From NCBI GenBank assembly GCA_963635055.1, contig CAVHEM010000009.1, positions 9,757-73,756 of the forward strand: a stretch of DNA of 64,000 nucleotides, read 5' to 3'. The notes under the pieces were generated by a model. It searched no databases. It saw only the letters and a list, made by a program, of their open reading frames with translations, and was not told the origin of the DNA. Numbering within the stretch: position 1 is the first letter of the stretch; the number at the start of each line of letters is the position of its first letter. Below are positions 11,752 through 59,525 of this stretch, piece by piece. Both the position numbers and the translations under genes were made by a program. The DNA is from Bacteroidaceae bacterium. GTDB lineage: Bacteria; Cyanobacteriota; Vampirovibrionia; Gastranaerophilales; Gastranaerophilaceae.

Positions 11752-11798
11752 AATTTTTATATTCGTGTTAAAATTCAATAGTAATAATGGAGTTCATA

Positions 11799-12215
11799 AT
11801 GAGTAATAGCCAATTGGATTTGATGAATTTGAAAAACTGTATAAGCGCTTTGAAAGAATGCATTGAAGCCTATAAGTCAAATACAGATAAGAAAATACAA
11901 GGTTTTATAGAAGATTCTTGCGTTAAAAGGTTTGAATTTACTGTTGAAACATCTTGGAAAACAATGAAACGATTTTTAAAAGTCGTTTATGGTAAAGATG
12001 ATAAAGAATTGACCATGAATAATATTTTTCGTTTAATGGAAGGATATGGATTTATCAAATCTTGGGAAGCATGGCGTGGTTATTATGACCAACGAAATGA
12101 TACAAGCCATGAATATAATCAAAAGAAGGCTATTGGTATTTTGAATTCTATGAATGATTTATTAGAAGATGCAAATTACTTATACACAGAATTGAATAAG
12201 GAATTAAACAAGTAA
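11799..12215 (+). CDS. HEPN-domain protein, HI0074 / HepT-like nucleotidyltransferase substrate-binding family (toxin-type component)
   Basis: VKRFEFTVETSWKTMKRFL and RNDTSHEY (Rx4H HEPN motif). Start set at ATG 11799, which has a GGAG SD. Confidence 0.8.
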   Translation: MSNSQLDLMNLKNCISALKECIEAYKSNTDKKIQGFIEDSCVKRFEFTVETSWKTMKRFLKVVYGKDDKELTMNNIFRLMEGYGFIKSWEAWRGYYDQRNDTSHEYNQKKAIGILNSMNDLLEDANYLYTELNKELNK

Positions 12216-12512
12216 ATGCCACTTGGAATAACAGAAAAAGAGCGTAGTATAATTGTAGGTATTTTGAAAGAATATTTCAACAAATATTCTTTTTATTACT
12301 ATGGTTCAAGAATAAAAGGAAATTTTAACAAGACTTCTGATTTGGACATTATGATAAAGGGCAACTCAGAGATGCCTTTGTCTGAATTAGCAGCATTAAA
12401 AAACAAATTTGATAAAAGTTTTTTGCCGTATATTGTGAATTTTACAGATTATTGTAGTATTGATAAAAATTTCTATAATTTAATTAAAAATGATTTAATT
12501 CTTGTCAAATAA
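12216..12512 (+). CDS. Minimal nucleotidyltransferase (MNT / MntA-like, HI0073 family; antitoxin-type component)
   Basis: YYYGSRIKGNFNKTSDLDIMI (GS...DxD NTase motif). The ATG directly follows the HEPN gene stop (TAAATG). Confidence 0.8.
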   Translation: MPLGITEKERSIIVGILKEYFNKYSFYYYGSRIKGNFNKTSDLDIMIKGNSEMPLSELAALKNKFDKSFLPYIVNFTDYCSIDKNFYNLIKNDLILVK

Positions 12513-12609: not shown

Positions 12610-12804
12610 AAATTTCGAAGTATATTGAATTGTAAAGATTTTGTAAATATTTATAAATTTATGTAACAAAACACTAAATTTTTAACACCCTAGAACCGTT
12701 TATATAAATATACGAACATGTGAAAGTGTCATGTGCAAATAGTATAAGGAACGTAAAAATTGCAAAACAGGAACAAGAACATATACGAGAAAGGATTGGC
12801 AAAG

Positions 12805-15800
12805 ATGAGAAGAAGTAGAAAAGCACAAAGAAGAATTGTTGCATCAATACTTACGGGTGTTTTCCTAATGCAACAGACAATGACATTATCTGTCTTTGCG
12901 AGCACTATTACTTCAGTCGGTTCAGGTGTATCTCAAGATGGTAATACATTTACTATCGATCCGATGAAAACTAACGGAAATATCGGTTTTCAAAGATATT
13001 CTGACTTTACGTTGGATAAAGGTGATACTGCGAACTTAAACTTCGAAGGTGTTGAGACATTTGTTAACTTGTTGGATAAAGATAAGGGTCAATTCACTAT
13101 CAATGGTACTTTGAACTCTATCAGAAATAACAATTTCTATGAAGGTAAAGCAATTTTCATTTCACCAAACGGAATGGTTGTAGGTTCATCAGGTGTTCTT
13201 AACGTTGGTTCTTTGGGTGTTTATACTCACAGTGCCGATCAATATGATACAATTATGCAACAATCTGATATCAGCCATTGGACAGATAGAGATTTAGGAT
13301 TGACAAGCAACGGTACTATTACTATTGATGGTAAAGTATTCTCATCTGGTGATATCGCATTGAGAGCAGGTCAAATTAATCTTGGTCAAACAGGTGCTTT
13401 GATTGGTGGTTTGAATACCACAGTCGGTCAAAGTGTTAAAGATAATCCTGCAAACGCTGCTTTATTCTCAAGATTAGTTAATTTTAATGACGCTGCAAAT
13501 GATAAAAATTCAAGCGGTAAAGGTATTATCACAATCAACAACTATGTAGAAAGTGCTTTAGAAAAATCTACAGACGGTTTGAATTTACAAGGTACTGTTG
13601 CAAACTATGCTACAGTGACTCAACAAGATAGTTCTTATGTAAACGGTACTGTTGATTTAGCAAATATTCAAATTTACAATGGACATGGTGATGCTGTAAT
13701 TGGTGGTAAGATCACATCAAACGGTGGCAGCTTAAAGATTACTAACCGTGCTCAATTAAAAGATGGCAAAGGTAATTTGACAATCGCTGATGGTGCTAAT
13801 ATCAATTATCGTAGCGGCTCAATGTCTATCCACAACGGTCCTGTAACTTCAGGTTCTACAGGTTGGGCATCTGATAACGGTAACTATACATCAATGACAA
13901 TCAACGGCAACTTGTCAGGTAACGGTGATATGACCATTACTCAACTTGGTGCAGGTGGTATGACATTTGGTAAGAACAGTACAGTTACTAACAACGGTAC
14001 TTTAACTATTCAAAACGGTAACAAACCTGAAAGCGATGCTGCTAAAGAATTGAATGCCGTATCTGCTTCAATGGAAATCAACGGTAAGATTTCTAACACT
14101 GGTAAATCAACCATTACAAACTACGGTAAAGCCTTGAACGTTAACGCTACAGGTAATGTATCAAACGAAACTTCAACATTATCTATGTATAACTTCGGTG
14201 AAAATGGTTTTAATGTTGCAAACGGTGGTTCTATCAACGGTACTGATACAACAATTTATATGTATAACTATGGTGCTGACGGTATGAACACTCATGGCAA
14301 TGTAACTGCAAAAGGTACAGGCGACATTAACATGATAAACTTCGCATCAGGTACAAACGGTATCAATATTTACGAAGATAGTAAAATTACAAGTAATAAC
14401 AATATCAGTATTACCAACAAAGCAACAGGTCGTGACAATAAATCTTTAAGAAACGAAGTTGGCGGTGTTAACGTTAGAGGTTTAATTGATGCTACTGAAA
14501 TCGTTAATATTGATAGTGATTCAGGTAACGTTATATTAGGTTATACAACTAACGACAATTTTGTTAAAGGTAAAAATATTAACATCACAACAAATGATGC
14601 AAGTATTCTTAACTATGGTGTTGAAAAAACATTGTTGAATGCAACAGGTAACTTGTCAATGAAAGCAACTGATGGTACTATCGGTTTGACAACTCAAGAT
14701 AATGCATGTACAGGTTCAGGTTGTACCGGTGTTGGTCGTAAAGCAAATGGCAGCCGTGATTTCACAAAATCAATCAACGCAAATATTGGCGGTAACGTTT
14801 ATGCAAAAACAACAAATGCTGATAACACTGAGCAAGCAGCAAAACCAGAAGGATTAGTTATCAACTATGCTTCTATCGGTAACGATATGAACATTGATGT
14901 AGTTGATGCTGACGGTCGTGTTATCTTGACAGTTGATGATGATTACGGAACTGCTAACAACGGTAAAAAATACAGCATGAACAATGCTAATACAGGTTTG
15001 AACGGTGCTACAAACATCAAAGGTTGGGGCATTTCTTTAATCGCTGATAAAAATATTGGTACAAGCGACAACAAAGTAACCTTTATTCAAACTAAAGATG
15101 GTAATGATGGTTACAAAATGGACGTTTTGGCTAACAACGATATCAATATTAAAGAAAATAGTTACAATGACAGTGCTTACAAGGCTAAAAACGGCGAAAC
15201 CAAAAGTAACGATGTTTGCACAATGATTTCAAGAGAAGGAAGTATTGATGCTGAATTCGGCGGGAATACTTACATTGAAGACATTACTGCAGAAAAATCA
15301 ATCAATGTTGTTACTCGTGGTAAGATATTGGAAATTGAAAACTTGGGCGATATTCAAAACAAAGACATCTTAACAAACGGTGACTACTTCGGTAAATACA
15401 CAAACGGTGAAGCTGATGGCGGTTACTTGTCAGATGATAGAAAAACTCAATCTTTACCTAATGAAGTTACTTTGAAAGCATTAGATATTAACAAATCAAT
15501 CAGATCTGACGGTACGAATGTTGATGGTTATTATGCTTATGCAGATTCAACAGTTAGAGTTAAAAACGCTTTGTTAGACCACGGTAATATGGATATCACG
15601 GCTGACCAAATTTATGCTAACGGTATTCACGTTGATTACGGCAAAACTGGTCCGAAAAAAGAAATCGATAATTCAACAAAAAAAGTTGAAGGTGCTAAAG
15701 AATATCCTACAGGACACGCAGTAAGACCTAAAGATGTTACAGACATCGACCATGACGAACACGAAAGAAACTACTATTACCACACCGGCAAAGGTGACGG

Positions 15801-17130
15801 TTTCTCTCAAGAAGGTGATGGTGATGGTTACTACGGACCTGATCATTACCCTGATAACGGCGGTAATTCAAATGTCGATAACGATGACGGTGTAAACAGT
15901 GACACTCCTATCGCTATGGAAGAAGAAAAACCGAATGAACCTGATTTTGGTGATACAGATATCGATACAGATATTGATATTGATACCGACATCGATATAG
16001 ATAACGATATCGATACAGATACTGATATTGATACAGATATCGACACAGACTTAGATATTGATACTGACTTAGATATCGATACAGATACTGATGACGATGT
16101 TCCAGATGAACCAAAACCAGATCCGGAACCTGATCCTGATAAAGAACCTGATTTTGGTGACACAGATACAGATACTGATATTGATACTGATACCGACATC
16201 GACATAGACAACGATATCGATACAGATACTGATATTGATACAGATATCGACACAGACTTAGATATTGATACTGACTTAGATATCGATACAGATACTGATG
16301 ACGATGTTCCAGATGAACCAAAACCAGATCCGGAACCTGATCCTGATAAAGAACCTGATTTTGGTGACACAGATACAGATACTGATATTGATACTGATAC
16401 CGACATCGACATAGACAACGATATCGATACAGATACTGATATTGATACAGATATCGACACAGACTTAGATATTGATACTGACTTAGATATCGATACAGAT
16501 ACTGATGACGATGTTCCAGATGAACCAAAACCAGATCCAGAGCCAGATCCAGAACCAGATTTTGGTGACACAGATACAGATACCGATATTGATACTGACA
16601 CAGATATCGACGTGGACAACGATATAGACACAGATACTGATATTGATACTGATATAGACACAGACTTAGATATTGATACTGATATTGATATCGATACAGA
16701 TACTGACGATGATGTTCCGGATAGACCGGTTATTATTCCGAAAGTTGACCCAAGTATCATGTACATTCAAAGAAAAATCGATATGGCTGACTTGTCTGCA
16801 ATTGATAAACGTCAATATATGAGATTCAATATTTCAGACTCTACTCAACCGGTACTTCTTGAAACTTCTAACTCAGGTATTAACAGTATCCTTGATATTT
16901 CAAGAGGTGGTATCGCAGTCGGTCAAGACAACACATTACAAGTTGGTGATGTTGTTCCGGTACACTTAACTTACGGTGATTTGGATATCGATGCTGATGT
17001 TAAGATTGTCGCAACATCAGATAGCAAAGCCGGAGCACAATTCGTAAACTTGGATCCTGCAACTGCAAACAAACTTCTATACTTGAATATGTTGCTGGAA
17101 GATGCACAATATAGCATAACTCTTAAATAG
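12805..17130 (+). CDS. Giant (about 1441 aa) exported beta-helix-like protein: signal peptide + TPS/hemagglutination-type N-terminal domain + Asp-X repeat modules + C-terminal PilZ domain
   Basis: Signal peptide MRRSRKAQRRIVASILTGVFLMQQTMTLSVFAS. The TPS-like block is FQRYSDFTLDKGDTANLNF...INGTLNS...AIFISPNGMVVGSSGVLNVGSLGV. A long G/N/T-rich region with repetitive motifs follows, then 4 x 69-aa Asp-X modules. The C-terminus carries RQYMR (RxxxR) and DISRGG (DxSxxG). Start set at ATG 12805 by alignment with the paralog; the track ORF starts at TTG 12760. Confidence 0.8.
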   Translation: MRRSRKAQRRIVASILTGVFLMQQTMTLSVFASTITSVGSGVSQDGNTFTIDPMKTNGNIGFQRYSDFTLDKGDTANLNFEGVETFVNLLDKDKGQFTINGTLNSIRNNNFYEGKAIFISPNGMVVGSSGVLNVGSLGVYTHSADQYDTIMQQSDISHWTDRDLGLTSNGTITIDGKVFSSGDIALRAGQINLGQTGALIGGLNTTVGQSVKDNPANAALFSRLVNFNDAANDKNSSGKGIITINNYVESALEKSTDGLNLQGTVANYATVTQQDSSYVNGTVDLANIQIYNGHGDAVIGGKITSNGGSLKITNRAQLKDGKGNLTIADGANINYRSGSMSIHNGPVTSGSTGWASDNGNYTSMTINGNLSGNGDMTITQLGAGGMTFGKNSTVTNNGTLTIQNGNKPESDAAKELNAVSASMEINGKISNTGKSTITNYGKALNVNATGNVSNETSTLSMYNFGENGFNVANGGSINGTDTTIYMYNYGADGMNTHGNVTAKGTGDINMINFASGTNGINIYEDSKITSNNNISITNKATGRDNKSLRNEVGGVNVRGLIDATEIVNIDSDSGNVILGYTTNDNFVKGKNINITTNDASILNYGVEKTLLNATGNLSMKATDGTIGLTTQDNACTGSGCTGVGRKANGSRDFTKSINANIGGNVYAKTTNADNTEQAAKPEGLVINYASIGNDMNIDVVDADGRVILTVDDDYGTANNGKKYSMNNANTGLNGATNIKGWGISLIADKNIGTSDNKVTFIQTKDGNDGYKMDVLANNDINIKENSYNDSAYKAKNGETKSNDVCTMISREGSIDAEFGGNTYIEDITAEKSINVVTRGKILEIENLGDIQNKDILTNGDYFGKYTNGEADGGYLSDDRKTQSLPNEVTLKALDINKSIRSDGTNVDGYYAYADSTVRVKNALLDHGNMDITADQIYANGIHVDYGKTGPKKEIDNSTKKVEGAKEYPTGHAVRPKDVTDIDHDEHERNYYYHTGKGDGFSQEGDGDGYYGPDHYPDNGGNSNVDNDDGVNSDTPIAMEEEKPNEPDFGDTDIDTDIDIDTDIDIDNDIDTDTDIDTDIDTDLDIDTDLDIDTDTDDDVPDEPKPDPEPDPDKEPDFGDTDTDTDIDTDTDIDIDNDIDTDTDIDTDIDTDLDIDTDLDIDTDTDDDVPDEPKPDPEPDPDKEPDFGDTDTDTDIDTDTDIDIDNDIDTDTDIDTDIDTDLDIDTDLDIDTDTDDDVPDEPKPDPEPDPEPDFGDTDTDTDIDTDTDIDVDNDIDTDTDIDTDIDTDLDIDTDIDIDTDTDDDVPDRPVIIPKVDPSIMYIQRKIDMADLSAIDKRQYMRFNISDSTQPVLLETSNSGINSILDISRGGIAVGQDNTLQVGDVVPVHLTYGDLDIDADVKIVATSDSKAGAQFVNLDPATANKLLYLNMLLEDAQYSITLK
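15937..16730 (+). repeat. In-frame tandem repeat, about 4 copies of 207 nt (last copy 201 nt), encoding alternating Asp-X modules and a PDEPKPDPEPDP linker
   Basis: GAACC(T/A)GATTTTGGTGA recurs at 15937, 16144, 16351 and 16552. Copies 1-3 are identical by eye over more than 100 nt. Confidence 0.9.
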
Positions 17131-26944: not shown

Positions 26945-27409
26945 ATGCCATTCAGGTACAGATTACAAAAAGTTTTGGACTTTAGAATAAACCAAAAAGA
27001 AGAACAAAGAACCAGAGTTCAAAAGGCACAACAAGCGGTTAATCAGGCTGAGAATGACATAAAAAAAAATAATCAAGATATTCTTGATACAAAACAAGGA
27101 ATGCGGTCGGCTGATCCAATGATGTACGATACTTACGACAAGTTTTTGGAACATCTTTGGCAGAAGGCTGAGGAACTCGAAGCAAGACGACAAGAGTTGC
27201 AAAAAAAACTCGACGAGGAAGTTCAAAAACTCGTAAAATGTGAACAAGCAGTCAAAGTTCTTGAAAAGCACAAAGAAAAAAATAAAGAACTATACTTAGC
27301 AGAAGAAAAAGCGGCAGAATTAAAGCAATTTTCAGAGTTGGGTGTCACAAGGTTCTTTAAGAAAATTCAAGAGCAAGCGGCAGAAGAAGAATTGAATAAC
27401 AATAAGTAG
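26945..27409 (+). CDS. fliJ: Flagellar export chaperone-like protein FliJ
   Basis: N-terminus MPFRYRLQKVLDFRINQKEEQ, a 154-aa charged coiled coil. Lies immediately upstream of a FliK-like gene. Confidence 0.7.
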   Translation: MPFRYRLQKVLDFRINQKEEQRTRVQKAQQAVNQAENDIKKNNQDILDTKQGMRSADPMMYDTYDKFLEHLWQKAEELEARRQELQKKLDEEVQKLVKCEQAVKVLEKHKEKNKELYLAEEKAAELKQFSELGVTRFFKKIQEQAAEEELNNNK

Positions 27410-27423
27410 AAGGTAATAATATT

Positions 27424-28695
27424 ATGAGCGTAAATTCAACAGTATCATCAGTAAGCAGTTCATCTGCAACATCTCAAGTTTCAAAGTCTTCAAATACTGA
27501 AAGTTCAAAAAAGACTTCTGATTCTTCTTTCAAAAATGAAATGGATAAAGTTTCAACAACAGAAAAAACTGAAAAAGATACAAAAACAGAATCTAAAGAG
27601 GTAAAAGAAACCAAAGAAACCTCAAAAACTCAAAAATCAGAAGAAACAGCAAAAGCTGAAAATACAAAAGACGCAAAAGTTGATGATAAAAATACTGTTT
27701 CTGACAAAAAAGAAACCAATATTGTTGATAATAAAGAAAACTTGTTAAAAGATATTGAAAAAAATAACATTGAACTTATTAAAAATCAACAAATTTTAGA
27801 TAAGAAAAACTTGTTAGGTACAGATAATAACCTTCAACAAGAACAACAGGCTCAGCAGATTCAATTTGCTCAAGCAAACTTAAACAAAAATATTGATAAT
27901 CCGATTTCTAAAAAAAATGATGTAAAAACTGTTGTAAAATCAGATAAAAAACGTGAAAATGAGTTGGATTCAATTAGTACTGAACTTGATAATGATTTAC
28001 AAGTTCCGACAGATACTTCACAACTTCAAGCAACGGATAGCAATTACAATACTGATTCGTTAGTTGCTGATGAAAATAATATGTTGAATGGTAATGTCAT
28101 ATTCAATAATGAATTATCTAGTTTTGATATTAACAATAATGAATTATCAAATGATATTCAACAAATGATAAATACCTCAACAATTGCTCACAATGTCGCA
28201 AGTGTTAAGGCTACTCAAGCAGTTGGAACTATGAAGTTAAATAACTCAACTAACAGTATTTCAATGACACAATCTGATGCTGAATTCTTTGTTAATTTGA
28301 CTCAAAATAATGATGTTTCAATGCAAAATATTACGGCTCAGGCAACAGAAATGACCCAACAAGGTGCTGATGTTAAAGAAGTTCAACAAAATGTCAAGGT
28401 ATCACAAGCGTTACTTGATGCCTTGAGTGAATCTCGTGAAAAAAATCAACCTGTAAGAATTGATTTTGATAAAGATGTTTCTGTTGTTTTAAGAGTCGGT
28501 AAAGATGGCGCCTTGGCTGCAAACTTTATCCCTGGCGATAAAGCAGTTGAGCAATATTTGAGAAATAATATTGAAACTTTGAAAAATACATTTAATGAAA
28601 ACGATTTGCCGTATTCAGATTTGAGTTATTCAAACAGAGGCGGCAAACAACAACGTGAAAACCAACGTAATAGACAACAACAGCAGCAGCAATAA
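27424..28695 (+). CDS. fliK: Flagellar hook-length control protein FliK-like
   Basis: S/T/K/E/N/Q-rich disordered N-terminal part and a conserved-looking C-terminal domain (VRIDFDKDVSVVLRVGKDGALAANFIP...). Its position between fliJ and a hook/rod protein supports the call. Confidence 0.55.
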   Translation: MSVNSTVSSVSSSSATSQVSKSSNTESSKKTSDSSFKNEMDKVSTTEKTEKDTKTESKEVKETKETSKTQKSEETAKAENTKDAKVDDKNTVSDKKETNIVDNKENLLKDIEKNNIELIKNQQILDKKNLLGTDNNLQQEQQAQQIQFAQANLNKNIDNPISKKNDVKTVVKSDKKRENELDSISTELDNDLQVPTDTSQLQATDSNYNTDSLVADENNMLNGNVIFNNELSSFDINNNELSNDIQQMINTSTIAHNVASVKATQAVGTMKLNNSTNSISMTQSDAEFFVNLTQNNDVSMQNITAQATEMTQQGADVKEVQQNVKVSQALLDALSESREKNQPVRIDFDKDVSVVLRVGKDGALAANFIPGDKAVEQYLRNNIETLKNTFNENDLPYSDLSYSNRGGKQQRENQRNRQQQQQQ

Positions 28696-28718
28696 TAAAA
28701 GGAGAGTTTAACAAAAAA

Positions 28719-29558
28719 ATGAATGATGCTTTTATCACAGCAATAAATACCCAATATGCGACGATAAACTGGATGGACGTTATCGCCGATAACATGACAA
28801 ACGTTTATACTCCAGGGTTCAAAGAAAAACAGGTAAGCTTCAAAACATTTTTAGGTGGAGCGATAAATGATGACTATAGCAAGAAAATGAGTCAAGGTAA
28901 ATCTACTCCAGGGACTTCTAATGATAACGTATTTTTGGAAGGAAAAGGCTTTTTCTTGACTAAAACTCCTGACGGCAAGAGTGTTTACACAAGACTCGGC
29001 GAATTTACTTTTGATGGTGAAGGGGTTTATAAAGCATCTAACGGGAATACTGTTCAAGGTTATATCCTTAATGATAAAGGAGAAATAATGCAAGGGACTA
29101 AACCTATAAGTGCTGATTTGTACCAAGAAACCGCATTGAAAGGCGGAGCATTAGATATTCCGACAACTAATATCAAAATGTGGATTGACCCGAACAACGG
29201 TAAATATTTAGGTAAGTATGACGAATACGAAATTCAAAAAGACGGAACAATTGTTGGTAAGGCTGAAAACGGAAAAAAAGTTGTTCCATTATATAGGATT
29301 ACAACAAGAAATTTCCATAATGCAGCAGGTTTGTATGAATACAAAGACGGAATGTTTTTAGAAACTGAAGAATCAGGTAAACCTGTTTTAGGTTGTGGTG
29401 AAATTCGTTCCGGTTTATTAGAACTTTCTAATGCTGATTTTAAGGGAAATATTTCATACTACAAAATGGCAAAATTACAGATGGAAGTGGTTAATAAACT
29501 TATTTCATCAAACAAAGAATTACTACAACAAGCAATGCAAATGGTTAGTAGTTCTTAA
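28719..29558 (+). CDS. Flagellar hook/basal-body rod family protein (FlgE/FlgF/FlgG family; short, 279 aa)
   Basis: N-terminal rod motif DVIADNMTNVYTPGFKE and a C-terminal LELSNADF...KMAKLQMEVVNKLISSNKELLQQA motif. Confidence 0.7.
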   Translation: MNDAFITAINTQYATINWMDVIADNMTNVYTPGFKEKQVSFKTFLGGAINDDYSKKMSQGKSTPGTSNDNVFLEGKGFFLTKTPDGKSVYTRLGEFTFDGEGVYKASNGNTVQGYILNDKGEIMQGTKPISADLYQETALKGGALDIPTTNIKMWIDPNNGKYLGKYDEYEIQKDGTIVGKAENGKKVVPLYRITTRNFHNAAGLYEYKDGMFLETEESGKPVLGCGEIRSGLLELSNADFKGNISYYKMAKLQMEVVNKLISSNKELLQQAMQMVSSS

Positions 29559-44840: not shown

Positions 44841-46250
44841 TTATTTTTCAAGTTCAATCATTTCGTCATCGTCTTGAATATTTTTACCAATAGATTTTTC
44901 AAGTTCGGCACGAGCAGAATTGTATTCATATAATGCCGTATAATAGGTTAATTGCGCTTGTTCGTAAGTATTTTCAGCATCTTTCAATTCTGTTGGAGAT
45001 GCCTCACCAACACGGTAACGACCATAAGATAACTCGTAGTTTTCTCGAGATTGTTTAACGTTTAAAATTGCTACAGGAAGTTGATTTCGCTTTTCTTCAA
45101 GTTTCAAATACGCATTTTGAATTTCCAAATATATACTGTTTTGGGTATTTCGAGCATTTGCAAGTTCTCTATCGTACAAATATTTTGCTTCTTTAATTTC
45201 ATTTCTGATAAGCATTGCGTTAATTGTCGGAAAAGTCAAATATCCGCCAACATTAAAACCGTAATTGGAATTCCAAGACTTACCACCTCGTTGATATTGA
45301 CCTTCAAAACTCAAGGTTGGAAAGAACGATTTTTTTGTCAATTTGATAGTTTGATTAACTCCTTCCACTTTAATTTCTGCAAGTTTCAATTCCGGACGAG
45401 AATCACGAGCCGTATCAATTGCCTGCTCAAATGACATATTAACCGGTTTATACTGTAATTTATCTACAATGTCATATCTTTCAATATAAGGTACACCCAT
45501 TACATTATTCAACTTTGCAATAGCCAAATTAACCGCATTTTCAGCCTGAATAAGTTTTAATTTTGCATTACTCAAATTTGTTTCTGCGATTGTGACATCA
45601 ACTTTCGGATTTTCTCCAGTCAAATAAAACGCTTTGGCCTGATTGTAAAACAATTGGTACTTATCAACGGTATCTTGTGCTACACGACGATTTTCATAAG
45701 CATACAAAACATTATAGTAAGCATCTTTAGTTTGGTAAATTACATCATTTACAACTGCTTCAAAAGTTTTTTTGTAACCCTCATAATCTAATTTTCTGAT
45801 TGTTGCCTGATTTTGAGTTACCCCAAAGTCATAGAGCATTTCTTGCAGTGAAATCTGCCCAAGCAAATAGTAATTAAATTCCAAACTTTGCCCTAATGCA
45901 TCAGACAATTGCAATTGTCTTAAACGAGTATAACCGGTTTGCCACGATATTGTTGGGAAAAAGTTTGACCAAACTTGTTTAATTCTGGCATCTGATGCCA
46001 AAATATCTTGAAATGCAGCGTTAATTTGCGGATTATTACCAAGTGCAAGTTTCAAACAGTTATCAAGAGTCATATCAATATTTTTTTCAATAGAGCCAGA
46101 TATGACATAGTTTGGATTAACTTTTACCTCAGGCAAAACTTGTTCACCTTGCGGATATTCGTCCGTATTGATATCATTGCCCAAACTTTTAGCCAAGGTT
46201 ACGGGCGAAATCATTATTATTATAAAAATTATGAATAATTTTTTAAGCAT
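44841..46250 (-). CDS. TolC-family outer membrane efflux protein
   Basis: Signal peptide and two tandem OEP repeats with characteristic helical heptads. Overlaps the RND pump gene stop. Confidence 0.85.
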   Translation of the reverse strand: MLKKLFIIFIIIMISPVTLAKSLGNDINTDEYPQGEQVLPEVKVNPNYVISGSIEKNIDMTLDNCLKLALGNNPQINAAFQDILASDARIKQVWSNFFPTISWQTGYTRLRQLQLSDALGQSLEFNYYLLGQISLQEMLYDFGVTQNQATIRKLDYEGYKKTFEAVVNDVIYQTKDAYYNVLYAYENRRVAQDTVDKYQLFYNQAKAFYLTGENPKVDVTIAETNLSNAKLKLIQAENAVNLAIAKLNNVMGVPYIERYDIVDKLQYKPVNMSFEQAIDTARDSRPELKLAEIKVEGVNQTIKLTKKSFFPTLSFEGQYQRGGKSWNSNYGFNVGGYLTFPTINAMLIRNEIKEAKYLYDRELANARNTQNSIYLEIQNAYLKLEEKRNQLPVAILNVKQSRENYELSYGRYRVGEASPTELKDAENTYEQAQLTYYTALYEYNSARAELEKSIGKNIQDDDEMIELEK

Positions 46251-49200
46251 CTTTTTTACTTTCTTTGATTTTTGAAACTTTATTTGACATGTAAATTTTA
46301 AATTCCTCTACCATAACGTAAAATGCCGGAACTAGGAATGTACCAATAAATGCAACCGCCATCATACCGCCAAATACTGTCATACCAACAGAGTGACGAG
46401 ATGCAGCCCCTGCACCTTGCGCAAATACAAGAGGTAACAAACCTAAAATAAACGCAATATTTGTCATCATTACCGCTCTGAAACGTAATTTTGCAGCCTG
46501 CATTGCCGCTTCTCGTATCGGCATACCGCTTTCATGAGCATCTTTAGCAAATTCAACAATAAGAATTGCCTGTTTTGTACTCAAACCGATTAACATAACC
46601 AAACCAATTTGAGAATACAAGTCCATTGAATACCCTGCAACATATTGGAAAACCAGCGCTCCGACAAGAGATACAGGAGTAACCAAAAGTACACTTATTG
46701 GCAAGAACCAACTTTCATACAATCCGACCAAGAACAAGAAAATAAATACCAAAGACATTACCAAAATCGGTAAAATTTGTCCGCTTGATTGTTTTTCTTG
46801 TAAAGAAGAACCTGACCATGAGTAGCCCATATTATCCGGCAAAACTTCATCAGAAAGTTTTTCCATCATCTCCATTGCCTTACCGGAACTTACACCAGAA
46901 CGTGCACTTCCGTTAATTGTAATTGCTGGGTACATGTTAAATCTTGTTCTTGTATATGGTCCGACAATGTTAGAAATTTTTACAACAGACATCAACGGTA
47001 CCATTTTACCAAAGTTATTTTTTACATAAATTTTATTCAAGTCAGAGATTTTTTCTCTATATGGTGCATCTGCTTGAACATAAACACGGTAAACACGACC
47101 GTATTTGTTAAAGTCATTAACATAAGTTTTGGCAAAATATGCCGCAATTGCATTATAAATTTCAGTAACTTCAACATTCTGCGCCATTGCTTTATCCACA
47201 TCAACATCAATCAACAATTGAGGCAAATTTGCTGTGTAAGATGAATAAATCATAGTAAAATCAGGATTTTGTCTTGCTTTATTCATCAAATTTTGTGCTT
47301 GTTGATACATTTCACCGGCACTTCTATCACCTTTATCAAGTAATTGATATTCAAAACCGCCAAACATACCTAAACCTGTAATAGCAGGTGGGGAGAAGGT
47401 CGCTATCGTAGCCCCAGGGAAATGCGCAAATTGAGCGTTAATGTTTCCGGTTATACCATCTATAGATTCTTCTTTTGACTTTCTTTGTGACCACGGCTTT
47501 AAGTGAGATACGATAAATGCCGTATTTTCACCGTCAAAACCAATCAATGAAATAGTATCAGCAACCCCAGGGAGTTTTTTCAATTTATTTTCAACGTCCT
47601 TTGCAACACTATCTGTTCTTGACGCTGATGAACCTTCCGGCAACTGAATTTGAGTAAACAATGCACCTCTGTCTTCTGCCGGCAAAAATCCTTTTGGAAT
47701 TAAATAGAACATAAAACCTGATAATACTGTAATTCCAAGAATTACTCCAAGTGTCAATTTCCACGAGTTAATAAAGGTTTTTGTTCCTTCAATATATTTA
47801 TCACGAACCCCGTTAAACCATTCATCAAAAACTTGAATAAACTTAAAGTCCGCTTTTTGACTATCTTTTTTCAATATCATAGAACAAAGTGCAGGTGCTA
47901 AAGTCAATGCAACCATTGTTGACAAACCGATTGATGAGGCAATACATAGTGCGAATTGTCTGAACATACGACCTGTAATCCCGCCCATAAACGATACTGG
48001 AACAAATACTGCCATCAATACTAACGATGTTGCAACAACGGCACCAAATACCTCTTTCATTGTGACTTCTGTCGCTTCTTTCGGGTCAAGTCCGTCTTGA
48101 ATGTGTCTTTGAGTATTTTCCAATACAACAATCGCATCATCTACAACCAGCCCAACAGCAAGTACCAAGCCGAATAAAATCAACAAGTTTATCGAAAATC
48201 CAAATAAGTTCATGAAAATAAATACACCGATTAAAGAAACCGGAATTGCAGCAAAAGGAATAAATGCCGCTCTTGCAGTACCTAAAAACATGTAAGTTAC
48301 AATTGATACCAATAATACGGCTAGTGCAACTGCCGTTACAACTTCGTGAATAGATTCTCGTACAAATTCCGTTTCATCGTGTTGAACTTTGTATGTAATA
48401 TCTTTTGGGAAAGTTTTGCTCAATTCAGCCAATTTCTTTTGAATTTTATTTGACAATTGAATAGCATTTGCTTCGGGCATTTGACTGACTGTAACAATTG
48501 CAGAATTTTTACCGCTTATACGTGAAAAATAGGAGTAACTTTCTGCCCCTAAATCAACTTTTGCAACATCTTTCAGCTTAATTTGCGCACCGTTTGGCAA
48601 TGATTTTATAATTATATCTTCAAACTCTTCGGCTGATTTCAAACGTCCTTTGGTACGCATAGTGAGTTTGATTAACTGTTTGTTTTTCATAGGTTCAACA
48701 CCCAAATCACCGGCAGGTGTTTGAATATTTTGAGCCTGAATTGCATTAGTTACATCAGTTGTGGAAAGCCCATAATTTGCCATTTTGTCAGCATCAAGCC
48801 ATATACGCATTGCATAAGATGATGAACCGAATACACTAACTGTACCGACGCCTTTAATACGTGCGATTTCATCTTTAATAAAGATATCTGCATAATTTGC
48901 AATAAATAAGTTATCATAGGAATTATGCGGAGAATTTACAGAAATCATCAACAACCCCGGACCACCGGTAGTTTTACGTACGGACAAACCGTATCGCCGC
49001 ACTTCTTCCGGCAAACGAGGGGTTACAAGTTGTAACTGGTTCTGAACGTTTACTACTGCCATATCCGGATCCGTTCCGATATCAAAATATAAAGTCAATT
49101 TATATGAACCGTTTTGAGAGGTTGACGACATATATATCATATTATCAACACCGTTCAATTGAGCCTCAACCGGTGCCGCAATAGTAGATTCAATAACGTC

Positions 49201-49377
49201 AGAACTTGCACCTGCGTAAGTTGCCTGAACAACAACCTGCGGTGGTGTAATTGAAGGATATTCCTCAAGAGGCAGCGTTTTTATCATCAAAATTCCGGCA
49301 AGTAAAATTGCCAGCGATATTACTATCGCCAATTTTGGACGTTTTATAAACAAATTACCTTTATTTTCTGTTGACAT
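46243..49377 (-). CDS. RND multidrug efflux transporter (AcrB/HAE1 family)
   Basis: 1044 aa with 12 TM segments and two large periplasmic loops. Has the VVDDAIVVLEN motif. Confidence 0.95.
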   Translation of the reverse strand: MSTENKGNLFIKRPKLAIVISLAILLAGILMIKTLPLEEYPSITPPQVVVQATYAGASSDVIESTIAAPVEAQLNGVDNMIYMSSTSQNGSYKLTLYFDIGTDPDMAVVNVQNQLQLVTPRLPEEVRRYGLSVRKTTGGPGLLMISVNSPHNSYDNLFIANYADIFIKDEIARIKGVGTVSVFGSSSYAMRIWLDADKMANYGLSTTDVTNAIQAQNIQTPAGDLGVEPMKNKQLIKLTMRTKGRLKSAEEFEDIIIKSLPNGAQIKLKDVAKVDLGAESYSYFSRISGKNSAIVTVSQMPEANAIQLSNKIQKKLAELSKTFPKDITYKVQHDETEFVRESIHEVVTAVALAVLLVSIVTYMFLGTARAAFIPFAAIPVSLIGVFIFMNLFGFSINLLILFGLVLAVGLVVDDAIVVLENTQRHIQDGLDPKEATEVTMKEVFGAVVATSLVLMAVFVPVSFMGGITGRMFRQFALCIASSIGLSTMVALTLAPALCSMILKKDSQKADFKFIQVFDEWFNGVRDKYIEGTKTFINSWKLTLGVILGITVLSGFMFYLIPKGFLPAEDRGALFTQIQLPEGSSASRTDSVAKDVENKLKKLPGVADTISLIGFDGENTAFIVSHLKPWSQRKSKEESIDGITGNINAQFAHFPGATIATFSPPAITGLGMFGGFEYQLLDKGDRSAGEMYQQAQNLMNKARQNPDFTMIYSSYTANLPQLLIDVDVDKAMAQNVEVTEIYNAIAAYFAKTYVNDFNKYGRVYRVYVQADAPYREKISDLNKIYVKNNFGKMVPLMSVVKISNIVGPYTRTRFNMYPAITINGSARSGVSSGKAMEMMEKLSDEVLPDNMGYSWSGSSLQEKQSSGQILPILVMSLVFIFLFLVGLYESWFLPISVLLVTPVSLVGALVFQYVAGYSMDLYSQIGLVMLIGLSTKQAILIVEFAKDAHESGMPIREAAMQAAKLRFRAVMMTNIAFILGLLPLVFAQGAGAASRHSVGMTVFGGMMAVAFIGTFLVPAFYVMVEEFKIYMSNKVSKIKESKKDA

Positions 49378-49399
49378 TATTGTTACCCTAATTTATATA

Positions 49400-50575
49400 T
49401 TATTTTTTCTTTGATTTTTTCTTATTTGAATTTTGGACAATTGATTTGTTTAGTTTTGCCATTTCTTCTTTTGAAACGATTTTAACAGGTGTTCCCGGAA
49501 TAACTTTCAGAATTCCTTCTGTAATAATAGTATCGCCTGCTTTTAATCCGTCTTTTACAATCCAGTTTTTACCTGATTGACCTTGAACTTTTATATAAGT
49601 TAATTGCGGTAATCCTTTATCATCGATTTTATAAACATATTTACCTTCTTGGTTTTCTTGAACAGCCACAACAGGCACTACAGGAACTTTAACAGGATTG
49701 TTTGCATAAAGTTTTACATTTACAAATTCGCCGTGTAAAAGTCTGTTTTTAGGATTTTGGAAAGTTGCACGCATTGTAACAGTACCGGTTGAATCATCAA
49801 CTTTGTTGTCCAAAAAGTCTTGAACACCGTCTAATTCATATTTTTCCCCATTTTGAAAATACAATTCAACCTTACGTTTTTGACTTGCATCAGTATCTGA
49901 TTTTGTGAGTGCTATATAATCGTTTGATTGCATCGGAAAAGTTACATATATCGGATTCGTACTATTAATAGTCGTCAATGAACCAGATGTAGGAGAAACA
50001 TAGTTTCCTACGGTCACATCAATGATACCAATTCGTCCATCAACCGGTGCTTTTACGGTTGTATAACCTAAATTTCTGTTTGAATCGCTGTATGTTGATT
50101 GTGCAGCTTTCAATTGCGCCTTCAAAGCGTTTCTGTTTGCCAATATTTCATCATAACGAGATTTTGCAATATAATCTTTTGCTACAAGTTCTTGGGCCCT
50201 TGCTAGTTGTTTATCAGCATAATCAAGTTGTGCTTGAATATTTTGAACATTTGCACCGGCAACACTTGATGCATTTTGATACTCTGCAGGTTCTATCAAA
50301 AACAAAGTTTGACCGGCTTTTACATAGTCACCTTCTTTAAAGTAACTTTTTTGCAAATAACCGGAAATTCTGGCAAGTACACTTACTTGATATTTTGAAA
50401 CGATACGAGCAGGCGCTTCAAAACTCGGGACAACTTCACCTTCTGTGATTTTATCGACTACAACTTCCGGAGCCTGCCTTACTCGTCCTTTGCTTGAAAA
50501 CATTGCGGAATAGCCAAATCTTAAACCAATTGCCGCAAATATAATCAATGTTATTATTATAATTTTCGACTTCAT
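49400..50575 (-). CDS. RND efflux periplasmic adaptor (membrane fusion protein, AcrA-like)
   Basis: N-terminal anchor, coiled-coil hairpin and beta-barrel segments. Start set at ATG 50575, which has a GGGAG SD. Confidence 0.85.
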   Translation of the reverse strand: MKSKIIIITLIIFAAIGLRFGYSAMFSSKGRVRQAPEVVVDKITEGEVVPSFEAPARIVSKYQVSVLARISGYLQKSYFKEGDYVKAGQTLFLIEPAEYQNASSVAGANVQNIQAQLDYADKQLARAQELVAKDYIAKSRYDEILANRNALKAQLKAAQSTYSDSNRNLGYTTVKAPVDGRIGIIDVTVGNYVSPTSGSLTTINSTNPIYVTFPMQSNDYIALTKSDTDASQKRKVELYFQNGEKYELDGVQDFLDNKVDDSTGTVTMRATFQNPKNRLLHGEFVNVKLYANNPVKVPVVPVVAVQENQEGKYVYKIDDKGLPQLTYIKVQGQSGKNWIVKDGLKAGDTIITEGILKVIPGTPVKIVSKEEMAKLNKSIVQNSNKKKSKKK

Positions 50576-50660
50576 TATATATCTCCCTATCAAAATTTTA
50601 GAGGTAAATCCTAATCAACGTGTATATTAAGTTTAATATAAATGTACTTTTGGTGTCAAA

Positions 50661-53726: not shown

Positions 53727-56700
53727 CTAAAATACGTTTGAGAATTTATTCACATCATCTAATATCATATTCAAGAATAGAATTTGATTTGCAGTTGCAG
53801 AATCTAGGTTTACGAACTTAGCCCCTGCTCTGCTGCCGGTAGTTGAAACGATTTCAACATCAGCATTGATATCAAGGTTTCCGTAGCCGATGTGAACAGG
53901 CACTACATCACCAACTTTGATGTCTTTGCCGTGCTTGATTGAAATTCCACCTCTTGAAATATCTATCAACTGTTCAACACCGTGTCCTGTTTCAAGTGAA
54001 ATAGGGTTAATGTTATCAGAAACCGAATATCTCATATATTGACGTTTGTCAATTGCTGACAAGCCTTGAGAATCAATTTTTCTTTGAATATAAGTAACAC
54101 TACCATCTGCTCTACTGTTGTCATCGTCTGTATCGATATCATTGTCTGCATCTGTATCAACATCAGTATCAGTGTCTATATCTGTATCCCCTGGGTTAGG
54201 TTCCGGTTTATCGTCATCTGTGTCAGTATCCCCAGGATTTGGTTCTGGAATATCATCGTCATCATCTGAATCGGTATCTCCAGGGTTAGGTTCCGGCTTA
54301 TCATCGTCTGTGTCGGTATCACCCGGATTTGGCTCAGGAATATCATCGTCATCATCTGAATCGGTATCTCCAGGGTTCGGTTCCGGCTTATCATCGTCTG
54401 TGTCAGTATCACCAGGATTTGGCTCAGGAATATCATCGTCATCGTCTGAATCGGTATCCCCTGGGGTCGGTTCCGGCTTATCATCGTCTGTGTCAGTGTC
54501 ACCAGGGTTTGGTTCTGGGATATCATCATCAGTATCTGTATCAATATCAGAGTCCAAGTCGATATCTGTATCAGCATCTAAGTCATTATCCAAATCTGAG
54601 TCTGCATCAGTGTCTGTGTCCATATCGATATCATTGTCAGCGTCAATATCTGTGTCTGTATCAATATCCGTATCGGTATCAGTATCACCAAATGATGGTT
54701 CTTTGTCATCTGGTTTATCGTCATCAGTGTCGGTATCTGTATCCCCTGGGTTTGGATCAGGAATATCATCGTCTGTATCAATATCTGTGTCAGTATCAGA
54801 ATCCAAGTCAATATCCGTGTCAGAATCTAAGTCAGTATCAATATCTGAATCCAAATCAGTATCTGTATCTATATCGGTATCGTTATCTAAGTCGTTGTCA
54901 TTATCAACATCAATATCTGTATCTGTGTCAACGTCTGTATCAGTATCAGTGTCGCCGAAATTAGGTTCATCAGGCTTATGATCAGGAGTATCATCATCTG
55001 TGTCAGTATCTGTATCGATATCAACATCAGTATCTGAGTCTAAATCTGTATCAATGTCGTTATCAGCATCAGTATCAGTATCAATATCATTATCTACGTC
55101 GATATCTGTGTCTGTATCAATATCCGTATCAGTATCGGTGTCACCAAAAGTTGGCTGATTTTTATCCTTGTCCGGAATATCGTCATCTGTATCAGCGTCT
55201 AAATCATTATCAGCATCGATATCAGTATCCAAATCTGTATCAATATCTAAGTCTGTATCGATATCAGTATCTGTATCTATGTCGTTGTCAATATCTATAT
55301 CAATATCTGTGTCGATATCAGTATCAATATCGTTATCTGTATCCCCAAATGAAGGTTCAGGTTTATCTTCCATTTCTAACGGTGTTGCATCTACTATATC
55401 ATCATTATCATCAACATTAGATTCTTGACCATTAAATACACCGTCACCATCTCCTGGGTGATAGTAATAATTTCTTTCATGTTCGTCACGACCGATACCT
55501 TCAACATCATCTGGTCTAACGGCATGACCTGTAGGAATTTCGCTAGTACCAATCATTTTATTTGTTGAAGAATCCGGAGTTTTTGTATATCCGTCTTTAC
55601 CGAATTTTACAGCAATACCATTTGCATAGATATTATCTGCCGTAATATCAACGGTTCCATTATCAATAACCGCATTATCAACTCTTACTGTTGAATCAGC
55701 GTAAGCGTAATGACCATTATCAATATAAGTTCCGTTTGGACGAAGTGCTTTGTTAATATCCAATGATTTTAATACAACATTATTTGGTAACGCCTCATCT
55801 CTATGGTCAAAACCTGTATATCCGCCATCTTTTTGTCCGTAATCACGTGGTCCGAAGTAATCTTTCGGAGTAACTGAATTATCAACAATGTGACCTAAAT
55901 TTTTGATTGTTAAATTTGTACCTCTTGTAATAATTCTCATATTACCTTCTGAAGTAACATTGTTAATTATAGTGTTTCCGCCGAATTCAGCATCTAAATC
56001 GCCTTCACGAGCGATAATAGTACAAACTTTATTTACTAAATTTTTCTTATCATCTAATGCTTTAATAAAAATACTATCGTTAGCAAGTGCATCAATTGAA
56101 TAATTATTGCCATCTGTTTGGTTAAATGTCAATTTATTATCTTTGCTACCAATGTTGCCGTTAGATATCAAAGACATTCCCCAACCTTCAACATTTGCAA
56201 CAGTGTTATCAATTGCTGAATTTAGCATATCATAACGAGAACCGTTATTTGTATAACCAAAATCGTCATCAACAGTCAAAATAACTCTGCCATCTGCCTT
56301 GATTTTATCAATATTCATATCGTTACCGATAGAAGCGTAATTGATAACTAAATCTTTCTTTCTTGAAACCGGACTCTTAATTGTATCAGTTGTTGTTGCT
56401 GTAACAGTACCATCAACATTAGCATTGATTGATTTTGTAAAATCTCTGCTACCGTCAGATTTTGGACCGATACCTGTACAGCCTGAACCAACGCATGCAT
56501 TTTGTTGAACAGGTTCACCAATTGTGCCGTTTTCAACGTCCATTGTTAAATTTCCACCGGCATTCAATAATGTTTTTTCTACACCATAATTCAAAATATT
56601 TCCGTTGGTATTCGTAATATCAATATTTTTACCTGCAGAAACGTAATTATCATTAGAAGTTCTATCACCGATTACAATATTACTGTTTTTGTTTGCTATA

Positions 56701-58067: not shown

Positions 58068-59525
58068 TTATTCAGCAAAATTTATCCATTTTCTAACTAC
58101 TAAATAATAAAATCCATAGAACAATATTAACAAAATCAACATTTGAACCGTTCCCGGAATTATTGCGACATAAGTTTTTAACAAATATGCCAAAATAATC
58201 AAAGGTACAAAGGTTACAAACAGTCTTAAAATCATTCGTCTAGGAAGTTTGATATTCAAATTTGGTACAACAATTACTACACTTAACAACCAGAACAAGA
58301 AATTTGCTGCCAAAGTTGCTAAACCTACACCAACCAAACCCATCTTCGGAATTAAAACAATATTCAATACAACACCAACAATGCCTGAAATCAATTTAAT
58401 TATAAATCCAATGTGAGTTTTATTTGCCAAATGATACTGTAATGTTGTGTAATCAGTCAAAGACAAGAAAAATACACCCAATGAAAAATACGGAACCAAA
58501 ACACTTGCTTCATACATTTTTGGATTAGAAATAAACAAATGAGTGTAATCTAGATTATAGTAAGAAATTACGGCAATAACAGGCAATGAAACAAGTAAGT
58601 AATAACCTAAAAATCTTGAAATAATCGGTCTTACGTCAATTTTTGCTTCATACATATTGATAATACGTGGAATTGCAGCAACGGTAATCATAGCAAAAAG
58701 AGTCAATAATATTGACATCGTCAAGCCGTAACCTGCACCAACCAATGCCGCTTTTGAAAAGCCACTAATACTGTTCATAATAAATTTATTACTTTGTGTA
58801 ATAATCCAAGCGCTTAACGAAGTTGCAGCAATCGGAACACCGTATTTGACAATAGGTAAAATTGAACTCCATTCGATTTTTTGAGGTTTGAAAACCTTTA
58901 AAATTTCACTCTGATAAAGCAATAAAATATCTATCAATGTTATTGAAATTCCCATACTTAGCAAGATAGAAGCAGCACCAAGATGGAACGTTTTAGCTAA
59001 ATAGATTGCCAATAAAATCGTAGCAAATTGGTTCAAAATCGTTGTGATTGAGTATGAAATAGATTTCAATTGAGCACGTAAAATTTGAGATAACAATGCT
59101 CTTACAGCAACCGGAATTATCAAGAATAATACCATCAAGAAATACTTGAACGGAACATGGAATTGTGCGTAAAGATTATCTTTAAATATAAACCCTAGCC
59201 CAAACATCAATAAAATATTTATCGTCAAAATAGTAACTAAAGTTGTTACATATTTTGGTAAATCATCAAGAAGCTGGTGATGTCTGAAAAATCTTAGCCC
59301 AGATAATCCAACCCAATCAGAAAATAGAATACAAAGAAAAGATAAAAGAGCAATCGAAATTGTATACAAACCGTACTGCTCTTGAGAAAACAATGCCGTA
59401 TAAATAGGTACGGTAATCATATTCCCAAACATTCCACACAATTTTGACGGTGCATATTTCAGCATATCCGTAAAAATACCTTTTACTTCTTTTTCTTCCA
59501 ATTCTATATTTTCAATATATTCCAT
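58068..59525 (-). CDS. Polysaccharide/oligosaccharide flippase family protein (MOP superfamily, Wzx-like)
   Basis: 485 aa with about 12-14 TM segments and a basic inter-helix loop pattern typical of Wzx/MurJ-type flippases. Confidence 0.65.
   Translation of the reverse strand: MEYIENIELEEKEVKGIFTDMLKYAPSKLCGMFGNMITVPIYTALFSQEQYGLYTISIALLSFLCILFSDWVGLSGLRFFRHHQLLDDLPKYVTTLVTILTINILLMFGLGFIFKDNLYAQFHVPFKYFLMVLFLIIPVAVRALLSQILRAQLKSISYSITTILNQFATILLAIYLAKTFHLGAASILLSMGISITLIDILLLYQSEILKVFKPQKIEWSSILPIVKYGVPIAATSLSAWIITQSNKFIMNSISGFSKAALVGAGYGLTMSILLTLFAMITVAAIPRIINMYEAKIDVRPIISRFLGYYLLVSLPVIAVISYYNLDYTHLFISNPKMYEASVLVPYFSLGVFFLSLTDYTTLQYHLANKTHIGFIIKLISGIVGVVLNIVLIPKMGLVGVGLATLAANFLFWLLSVVIVVPNLNIKLPRRMILRLFVTFVPLIILAYLLKTYVAIIPGTVQMLILLILFYGFYYLVVRKWINFAE

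Follow-up and report, generated by a model that had tools for sequence, protein, structure and literature searches.

The stretch of DNA analysed here (the window) comprises 64,000 nucleotides of contig CAVHEM010000009.1, from a genome assigned to the Gastranaerophilales, and carries two paralogous genes, A and B. Each encodes a long adhesin-like protein with a predicted Sec signal peptide at the N-terminus and a PilZ domain at the C-terminus. PilZ receptors, which respond to the second messenger cyclic di-GMP (c-di-GMP), are treated as cytoplasmic, and the original prediction, made from the letters of the window, had described the arrangement as a topological conflict, that is, a Sec-exported protein ending in a PilZ domain of cytoplasmic type.

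The open reading frame (ORF) that holds gene A spans 12760-17130 (+). Its true start is likely the ATG at 12805 (MRRSRKAQRR), because a ribosome-binding site (AAAGGA) precedes this codon and the N-termini of homologues agree with it. The features of gene A are as follows; a slash in a signal peptide marks the predicted cleavage point.

12805-17130, + strand: adhesin gene A, 1441 amino acids (aa) plus stop, a putative TpsA-type passenger with PilZ at its end (ORF listing and translation)
12805-12900, + strand: predicted Sec signal peptide, aa 1-32, MRRSRKAQRR-IVASILTGVFLMQQTMTLSVFA/S (rule-based: charged n-region, h-region, AxA-like site)
12952-13389, + strand: two-partner-secretion (TPS) domain, LktA/FxxPxG type (NCBIfam NF012204, E 2.4e-38; structure model and PDB matches)
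13156-13173, + strand: FISPNG motif in the TPS domain
13390-15777, + strand: passenger, N/G/T-rich, beta-helical where modelled (first 350 aa), ending at a conserved ERNYY
14707-14724, + strand: conserved Cys pair CTGSGC in the passenger
15778-16761, + strand: acidic disordered spacer, 342 aa, 43% D+E, 11 K+R
15937-16722, + strand: 207-bp unit in the spacer, 3.8 copies, 94% identity
16762-17127, + strand: C-terminal PilZ module (Pfam, structure model with Foldseek, invariant columns), including the conserved pre-PilZ motif YIQRK
16804-16824, + strand: DKRQYMR, with RxxxR at 16810-16824
16894-16911, + strand: DISRGG (DxSxxG)
17059-17079, + strand: conserved helix ATANKLL in the PilZ module

Gene B has an architecture like that of gene A.

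53727-57887, - strand: adhesin gene B, 1386 aa plus stop, paralog of A
57792-57887, - strand: predicted Sec signal peptide, MNTRNKRPKR-IVAAVLTSLFLTQQSMLLSVIA/S (rule-based)
57309-57725, - strand: TPS domain (NCBIfam NF012204, E 1.4e-40)
57522-57539, - strand: FVSPKG motif in the TPS domain
54093-55463, - strand: acidic disordered spacer, about 457-471 aa, 44% D+E
53730-54092, - strand: C-terminal PilZ module (Pfam)
54030-54050, - strand: DKRQYMR, with RxxxR at 54030-54044
53946-53963, - strand: DISRGG (DxSxxG)

PilZ (PF07238) was the sole Pfam family matched in A and in B and lay at the extreme C-terminus of both, with 36.1 bits in A (E 8.6e-9, nucleotides ~16807-17076) and 36 bits in B (E 6.3e-9) against a cut-off of 22.5. 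Identity between A and B was 37% over the TPS domain, 56% over the passenger and 57% over the PilZ domain, and both spacers were almost without K or R. RxxxR and DxSxxG were separated by 22-23 residues, the canonical gap, and the claim that both paralogs keep these motifs intact held in residues and in coordinates. An AlphaFold2 (AF2) model of the last 137 aa, built with 67 homologues, had a barrel of pLDDT 84-92 and an RxxxR arm of low confidence, as expected of an unliganded PilZ domain. The top PDB matches of this model in Foldseek were Alg44, MapZ, YcgR, MrkH and BcsA, mostly solved with c-di-GMP.

Close homologues retained (D/N)xSRGG in 107 of 110 cases and RxxxR in all 66 that reach that region, with alignment columns R36, S62, R63, G64 and G65 invariant. 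Both motifs were kept at canonical spacing in 112 of the 124 evaluable clusters at 50% identity, among which two adhesins had clearly lost them, and the C-terminal helix F.NLD..TANK.LY was nearly invariant. The ratio of non-synonymous to synonymous substitution rates (dN/dS) of the PilZ segment was ~0.19 (pairs picked on passenger identity, dS near saturation), equal to that of the best-conserved, C-terminal segment of the passenger and lower than that of the TPS domain. A first estimate, in which PilZ appeared as the most conserved segment of all, was discarded because its pairs had been picked on PilZ identity. The PilZ segment is under purifying selection. The original prediction had argued for selection from the two copies alone and had named motif decay in most orthologues as one observation that would refute its plug hypothesis; decay on that scale was not seen, and the cluster counts together with the dN/dS support the argument.

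Signal peptides were judged by simple sequence rules, by which export of both A and B is predicted. The n-regions carry a charge of +5 or +6 and are followed by an h-region of ~20 aa and a cleavage-like site (VFA/S or VIA/S), and neither protein has a hydrophobic segment beyond the N-terminal one. With a predicted signal peptide and no stop-transfer segment, A and B do present the topological conflict, as far as prediction goes. Across the family the signal peptide follows the unusually conserved consensus (K/R)R-x-(I/V)-A-x-x-L-T-x-x-F-x-x-QQ-(S/T)-M-x-L-S-V-x-A, with a polar QQ pair in the middle of the h-region; conservation this strong is rare in ordinary Sec signals.

NCBIfam NF012204 ('leukotoxin LktA family filamentous adhesin', FxxPxG) covers residues ~50-195 of both proteins. 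The first 350 aa, modelled with AF2 at pLDDT 85, form a beta-helix whose top PDB matches are all TPS domains (HxuA, EtpA, HMW1, FHA and HpmA). Pfam PF05860 is present in some sequence homologues and gave no match on the A and B proteins, and a PDB sequence search with the N-terminal 623 aa returned nothing significant, so that the TPS fold came from structure comparison alone. On the strength of the family match, the modelled TPS fold and its PDB neighbours, A and B are assigned as TpsA passengers of type Vb (two-partner) secretion. The export picture drawn originally thus stands, on the rules used here, for the Sec-type N-terminus, and is to be extended by the TPS domain and the outer-membrane step, which it had missed. 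A resistance-nodulation-division (RND) efflux operon in the window at 44841-50593 (-), with an outer-membrane factor (OEP), an AcrB-type pump and an HlyD-type adaptor, confirms a two-membrane envelope. Export of a folded, ligand-bound PilZ domain by the twin-arginine (Tat) pathway was considered and rejected, as the basic pair, RR in many homologues, can also be KR, RK or KK, and plain Sec-type signals occur in the small PilZ proteins described below. A TpsA protein must also be unfolded to cross TpsB, which counts against Tat export.

A profile of the PilZ part found 317 places in 185,579 species genomes, and the loci of the 80 best places (76 distinct loci) were fetched. Nearly all of these best 80 of 317 places were labelled as Gastranaerophilales, Melainabacteria, Vampirovibrio or Cyanobacteria metagenome-assembled genomes (MAGs), and a few were contigs binned under the names of other taxa. 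On contig CAKUUC010000001.1 both paralogs are present, 98% identical to those of the window and likewise ~36 kb apart, indicating that it comes from the same species. Adhesin genes were often arrayed in twos or threes. In the fetched loci, each of the 40 long ORFs without interruption was a single frame (1017-1999 aa) that had a signal-peptide-like N-terminus (two are cut there), an FxSPxG motif and, at the C-terminus, a PilZ domain, with no hydrophobic segment beyond the first; 39 of them had both PilZ motifs. All 57 complete TPS-type ORFs in these loci ended in PilZ, including tandem neighbours not selected for PilZ, and the domain was strictly C-terminal in every complete gene. Mid-size paralogs had an acidic or proline-rich spacer of 71-514 aa that was very poor in K and R. 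A HMMER search of 1.84 billion representatives gave 213 matches, with the PilZ match at the C-terminal end in nearly all of the long proteins.

Public protein databases hold the PilZ part as 110 entries of 90-222 aa. These were rejected as stand-alone PilZ genes, being artefacts of N gaps or contig ends within the acidic repeats. Public gene calls for the adhesin family are systematically broken by these repeats, so that most protein databases do not show the architecture. Antisense and out-of-frame ORFs of 200-300 aa lie inside the acidic GAT/ACA repeats of A and B, at 15846-16766 (-) and 15914-16528 (-) and, in the repeats of gene B, at 54118-54981 (+) and among the ORFs of the 54329-64964 region; they most likely arise from the composition of the repeats. 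In those scaffolds that were examined, public gene calling had picked repeat ORFs of this kind, and the adhesin gene was truncated or not called at all.

Giant relatives of 5,093-6,412 aa end in the same PilZ subtype with both motifs and have a similar type of signal peptide and an FVSPxG motif; one, from a Gastranaerophilales MAG, is named 'PilZ domain-containing protein' by NCBI. A divergent gene for TpsB, of 672-683 aa, lies directly upstream in three of three giant genes examined (5.4-6.4 thousand aa), as listed here by our own locus numbers.

L080 7769-9787, - strand: TpsB gene (POTRA_2, ShlB and Omp85 domains)
L081 3781-5832, - strand: TpsB gene (same domains)
L082 3764-5812, - strand: TpsB gene (same domains)

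The lineage thus has a bona fide TPS machine, and the TPS domain together with TpsB beside giant relatives indicates that a second, outer-membrane translocation step exists. No TpsB gene was found in the 64-kb window, in the 76 loci obtained with the PilZ profile or beside the mid-size paralogs, and one TpsB may serve many passengers, the mid-size paralogs being without their own. A conserved neighbour of ~635 aa was rejected as a TpsB candidate, as it matched no Pfam family and was of low complexity with coiled-coil character. A conserved neighbour of the adhesin arrays (~390-750 aa, S/T/Q/N-rich, coiled-coil-like, no Pfam family, no obvious signal peptide) occurs in 45 fetched loci, for example at L076 556-2220 (-) and L008 9532-11391 (+).

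The same PilZ subtype with both motifs, scoring above the Pfam PilZ cut-off, was also found in small proteins of 145-350 aa (~35 clusters at 50% identity). In these a signal-peptide-like N-terminus that looks cleavable is followed by an S/T/N/Q-rich linker and the PilZ domain, and the conserved tail is LLYLSxxLExDNxxLxTxxS. Examples are listed below.

L029 4816-5322: small PilZ protein
L030 8452-8973: small PilZ protein
L037 8457-8957: small PilZ protein
L001 11032-11673, - strand: small PilZ protein

At 14 of 101 adhesin 3' ends a small PilZ gene starts at most 400 nt downstream on the same strand, and at 21 of 101 one lies within 5 kb; none was found in the window near A or B. These small proteins had been missed in the original prediction. 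Their signal-peptide-like N-termini suggest that an exported PilZ domain is no special trick of the adhesins, and the whole PilZ clade is predicted, from such N-termini, to be extracytoplasmic in this bacterial order.

In TPS systems a TpsA that remains bound to its cell is known to keep its C-terminal tail on the cell side of the TpsB pore. The common denominator to which our analysis commits is a PilZ domain that would act as a stopper on the cell side of a secreted fibre. Tentatively, and at confidence well below even, we favour a stopper that can be locked by its ligand and that meets c-di-GMP before the tail clears SecYEG. In essence this is the plug or tether model of the original prediction, placed in a TPS setting. 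Control by a ligand is suggested because the nucleotide site is kept nearly universally, and a meeting at the Sec step because c-di-GMP is known only in the cytoplasm and the tail is there only before it clears SecYEG. The adhesin would enter the periplasm through SecYEG with its N-terminus first; the TPS domain would engage the TpsB outer-membrane pore, the beta-helix would fold outside the cell, and the acidic spacer would trail across the envelope. The PilZ domain would come last and stay on the cell side as the ligand-lockable stopper. With c-di-GMP bound, the RxxxR arm would be clamped on the barrel, at the end from which SecA would have to unfold it, so that the tail could not clear the Sec channel and the fibre would be tethered to the cell. 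When no ligand is bound, the tail would be exported and the adhesin would be held weakly, or trimmed and released. The identity of the ligand as c-di-GMP, the compartment in which the two meet, the step that is locked and the physiological output are proposals made here.

Proteins of 1.4-6.4 thousand aa are, we infer, too long for wholly post-translational export, so that the last export step would be the only one plausibly controlled in cis by a C-terminal domain. In proOmpA-DHFR with bound methotrexate, stabilisation of the C-terminal domain by its ligand stalls the precursor in SecYEG (PMC4148884), and CdrA/LapG provides a precedent for c-di-GMP control of TpsA retention (PMC5422565). The literature describes HD-GYP c-di-GMP phosphodiesterases in Melainabacteria MEL.A1; no HD-GYP gene was found near the adhesins in the window or in related loci, and ~350,000 aa of related ORFs contained no GGDEF motif. 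Flagellar proteins (FliJ, the hook-length control protein FliK, and proteins with FlgE/F/G domains) are matched weakly to moderately at 26945-29558 (+) of the window. The bacterium probably has flagella, a point that bears on a switch by c-di-GMP from motile to sessile life.

Several points weigh against an arrest at the Sec step. A chain that stays lodged in SecYEG should harm the cell, judging by what is established on Sec jamming. GGDEF and EAL genes were found neither in the window nor in ~1 Mb of related loci. In the giants, ~45 residues lead from the structured passenger to PilZ, with no long acidic spacer to reach across the envelope. A permanent Sec plug makes little sense for the small PilZ proteins, which point to a function after export. 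Lastly, the tails of the TpsA proteins that have been studied, CdrA (PMC5422565) and FhaB (PMC4542190), are periplasmic, not cytoplasmic. A tail kept in the periplasm, or delivered into target cells as for CdiA and the FhaB CT, would resolve the conflict in a less exotic manner.

TpsA adhesins that stay on the cell have, as a rule, their C-terminal tails in the periplasm (PMC5422565; PMC4542190). In a second reading, the main rival, which we rate only slightly below the first, the precursor would fully clear SecYEG and the PilZ barrel would fold in the periplasm, where it would be too bulky for TpsB and would anchor the fibre in the way of the CdrA and FhaB tails. Such a stopper may work as a complex with the small PilZ paralogs, and it would account for their ~35 clusters with signal-peptide-like N-termini and for their positions downstream of adhesin genes (the 14 and 21 of 101 ends given above); the near-invariant C-terminal helix is likewise as expected of a protein-contact surface. 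The nucleotide site would then serve periplasmic c-di-GMP, another guanine nucleotide or a protein partner. However, c-di-GMP is known from no compartment but the cytoplasm, and a pure plug would need neither RxxxR nor DxSxxG, both of which are kept almost everywhere. A and B also have no small PilZ gene nearby.

It is improbable that the C-terminal PilZ domain is cargo, sent into a target cell (bacterium or host) to meet c-di-GMP or a c-di-GMP-dependent partner there, like the C-terminal domains (CTs) of CdiA and FhaB. The paradox would disappear without new cell biology in the producer, and the order of beta-helix, unstructured prolyl-rich or acidic region and small CT is FhaB-like (bioRxiv 10.1101/2025.06.17.660209); the spacer of 71-514 aa is very poor in K and R. 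Nevertheless, no VENN/pretoxin motif was found in A or B, the CT is always PilZ, with no polymorphic C-terminal domains among the 57 complete genes, and no conserved immunity-like gene was seen, the genes downstream in the window being housekeeping genes. Delivery would also leave the small PilZ paralogs unexplained, and one PilZ domain per contact could not, on our reasoning, titrate micromolar c-di-GMP. Very improbable is a conflict that is apparent only, in which the N-terminal segment would be no export signal, or internal initiation or cleavage would make or keep the PilZ domain as a cytoplasmic protein of its own. In its favour, databases list stand-alone PilZ proteins, and in copy A an in-frame Met lies 14 residues before the motif. 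The short entries, however, are artefacts that stem from N gaps and contig ends within the repeats, and the 40 uninterrupted loci each have one ORF of 1017-1999 aa. The upstream Met, rejected as an internal start, lacks conservation and has no counterpart in copy B, and the TPS-fold domain and the adjacent TpsB in relatives argue strongly for export.

In the broader form, a PilZ clade with canonical motifs would act on proteins with signal-peptide-like N-termini, either through Sec arrest by cytoplasmic c-di-GMP or through sensing of c-di-GMP or a related guanine nucleotide in the periplasm or at the surface, and we place this not far short of an even chance. Either, if true, would be a way of acting that has so far not been described for a second messenger. 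Sec arrest in particular would yield an adhesin crossing both membranes and, in general terms, a switch that makes export depend on c-di-GMP. What we rate as new is a TPS adhesin that carries a second-messenger domain of its own. A canonical PilZ domain is the obligatory last domain of many predicted secreted adhesins, of 1-6.4 thousand aa, across an order of gut bacteria. If this domain binds c-di-GMP, it would either control the last export step directly, combining the logic of LapD, LapG and CdrA in one polypeptide, or act outside the cytoplasm, and the cataloguing of c-di-GMP output pathways would change.

Other genes recur beside the adhesins. Type IV pilin-like genes (N-terminus such as MKKQGFSLAEVLITLG) adjoin adhesin genes at L001 3712-4434 (+) and at seven other loci. 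A Polysacc_synt (flippase-like) gene of ~485-500 aa repeatedly adjoins adhesin genes of the B type and the giant adhesin/TpsB loci, at the following positions.

Window 58068-59525, - strand: Polysacc_synt gene
L002 2859-4316: Polysacc_synt gene
L080 6262-7764: Polysacc_synt gene
L081 22184-23641: Polysacc_synt gene

Just upstream of gene A, at 11787-12512 (+), the window encodes a nucleotidyltransferase substrate-binding (HEPN-like) protein and a minimal nucleotidyltransferase, a pair that looks like a toxin-antitoxin module of the MNT/HEPN type.

The literature searched contained no paper that joins PilZ to two-partner-secretion passengers or that mentions periplasmic, secreted or exported PilZ, and one survey of PilZ nowhere mentions signal peptides, secretion or the periplasm. 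The closest named family is that of LktA (Fusobacterium necrophorum LktA; NF012204), which shares the FxxPxG N-terminal domain (E 1e-38 to 1e-40) and after which NCBI names relatives of A and B; the NF012204 model, however, describes the N-terminal domain only. We know of no report of a C-terminal PilZ domain in LktA family proteins, and the literature searches gave none. FhaB of the Bordetella FhaB/FhaC system is similar in its signal peptide, TPS domain, beta-helix, unstructured spacer (the prolyl-rich region, PRR) and small conserved C-terminal domain, and its prodomain or C-terminal region is periplasmic during secretion and controls maturation (PMC4542190). It differs in that its CT binds microtubules and is no PilZ domain, and in that its spacer is prolyl-rich whereas the spacer here is acidic; no sequence similarity between FhaB and A or B was detected beyond the TPS fold. 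A 2025 preprint describes delivery of the FhaB CT into target cells (10.1101/2025.06.17.660209), and the small C-terminal domain of CdiA is likewise sent into the target cell. CdiA-type delivery is unlike the case of A and B, which are without a VENN-like motif and in whose family the CT is always PilZ.

The CdrA/CdrB and LapD/LapG system of Pseudomonas aeruginosa resembles the arrangement proposed here in that a TpsA is held by its C-terminal tail on the cell side of TpsB and c-di-GMP sets its retention or release, the periplasmic tail serving as the anchor that LapG cuts at low c-di-GMP (PMC5422565). There, c-di-GMP is read by a separate inner-membrane protein, LapD, which controls the periplasmic protease LapG, whereas here the receptor domain lies within the adhesin; no LapG site, (T/A/P)AA(G/V), was found in A or B, and no lapD or lapG gene in the window. 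The physical principle of the favoured reading, a lock on export by bound ligand, is that of proOmpA-DHFR with methotrexate, in which a ligand-stabilised C-terminal domain halts the last SecA/SecYEG step (PMC4148884). That construct, unlike the adhesins, is an artificial laboratory one. We know of no natural, regulated counterpart of this arrest. BcsA, Alg44, YcgR, MapZ and MrkH share the PilZ fold and both binding motifs, with Alg44, MapZ and YcgR as the nearest solved structures. In BcsA and Alg44, binding of c-di-GMP gates the passage of a polymer through the envelope. In both the PilZ domain is cytoplasmic and gates a polysaccharide made by another domain, whereas here the PilZ domain would itself be the tail of the exported polymer.

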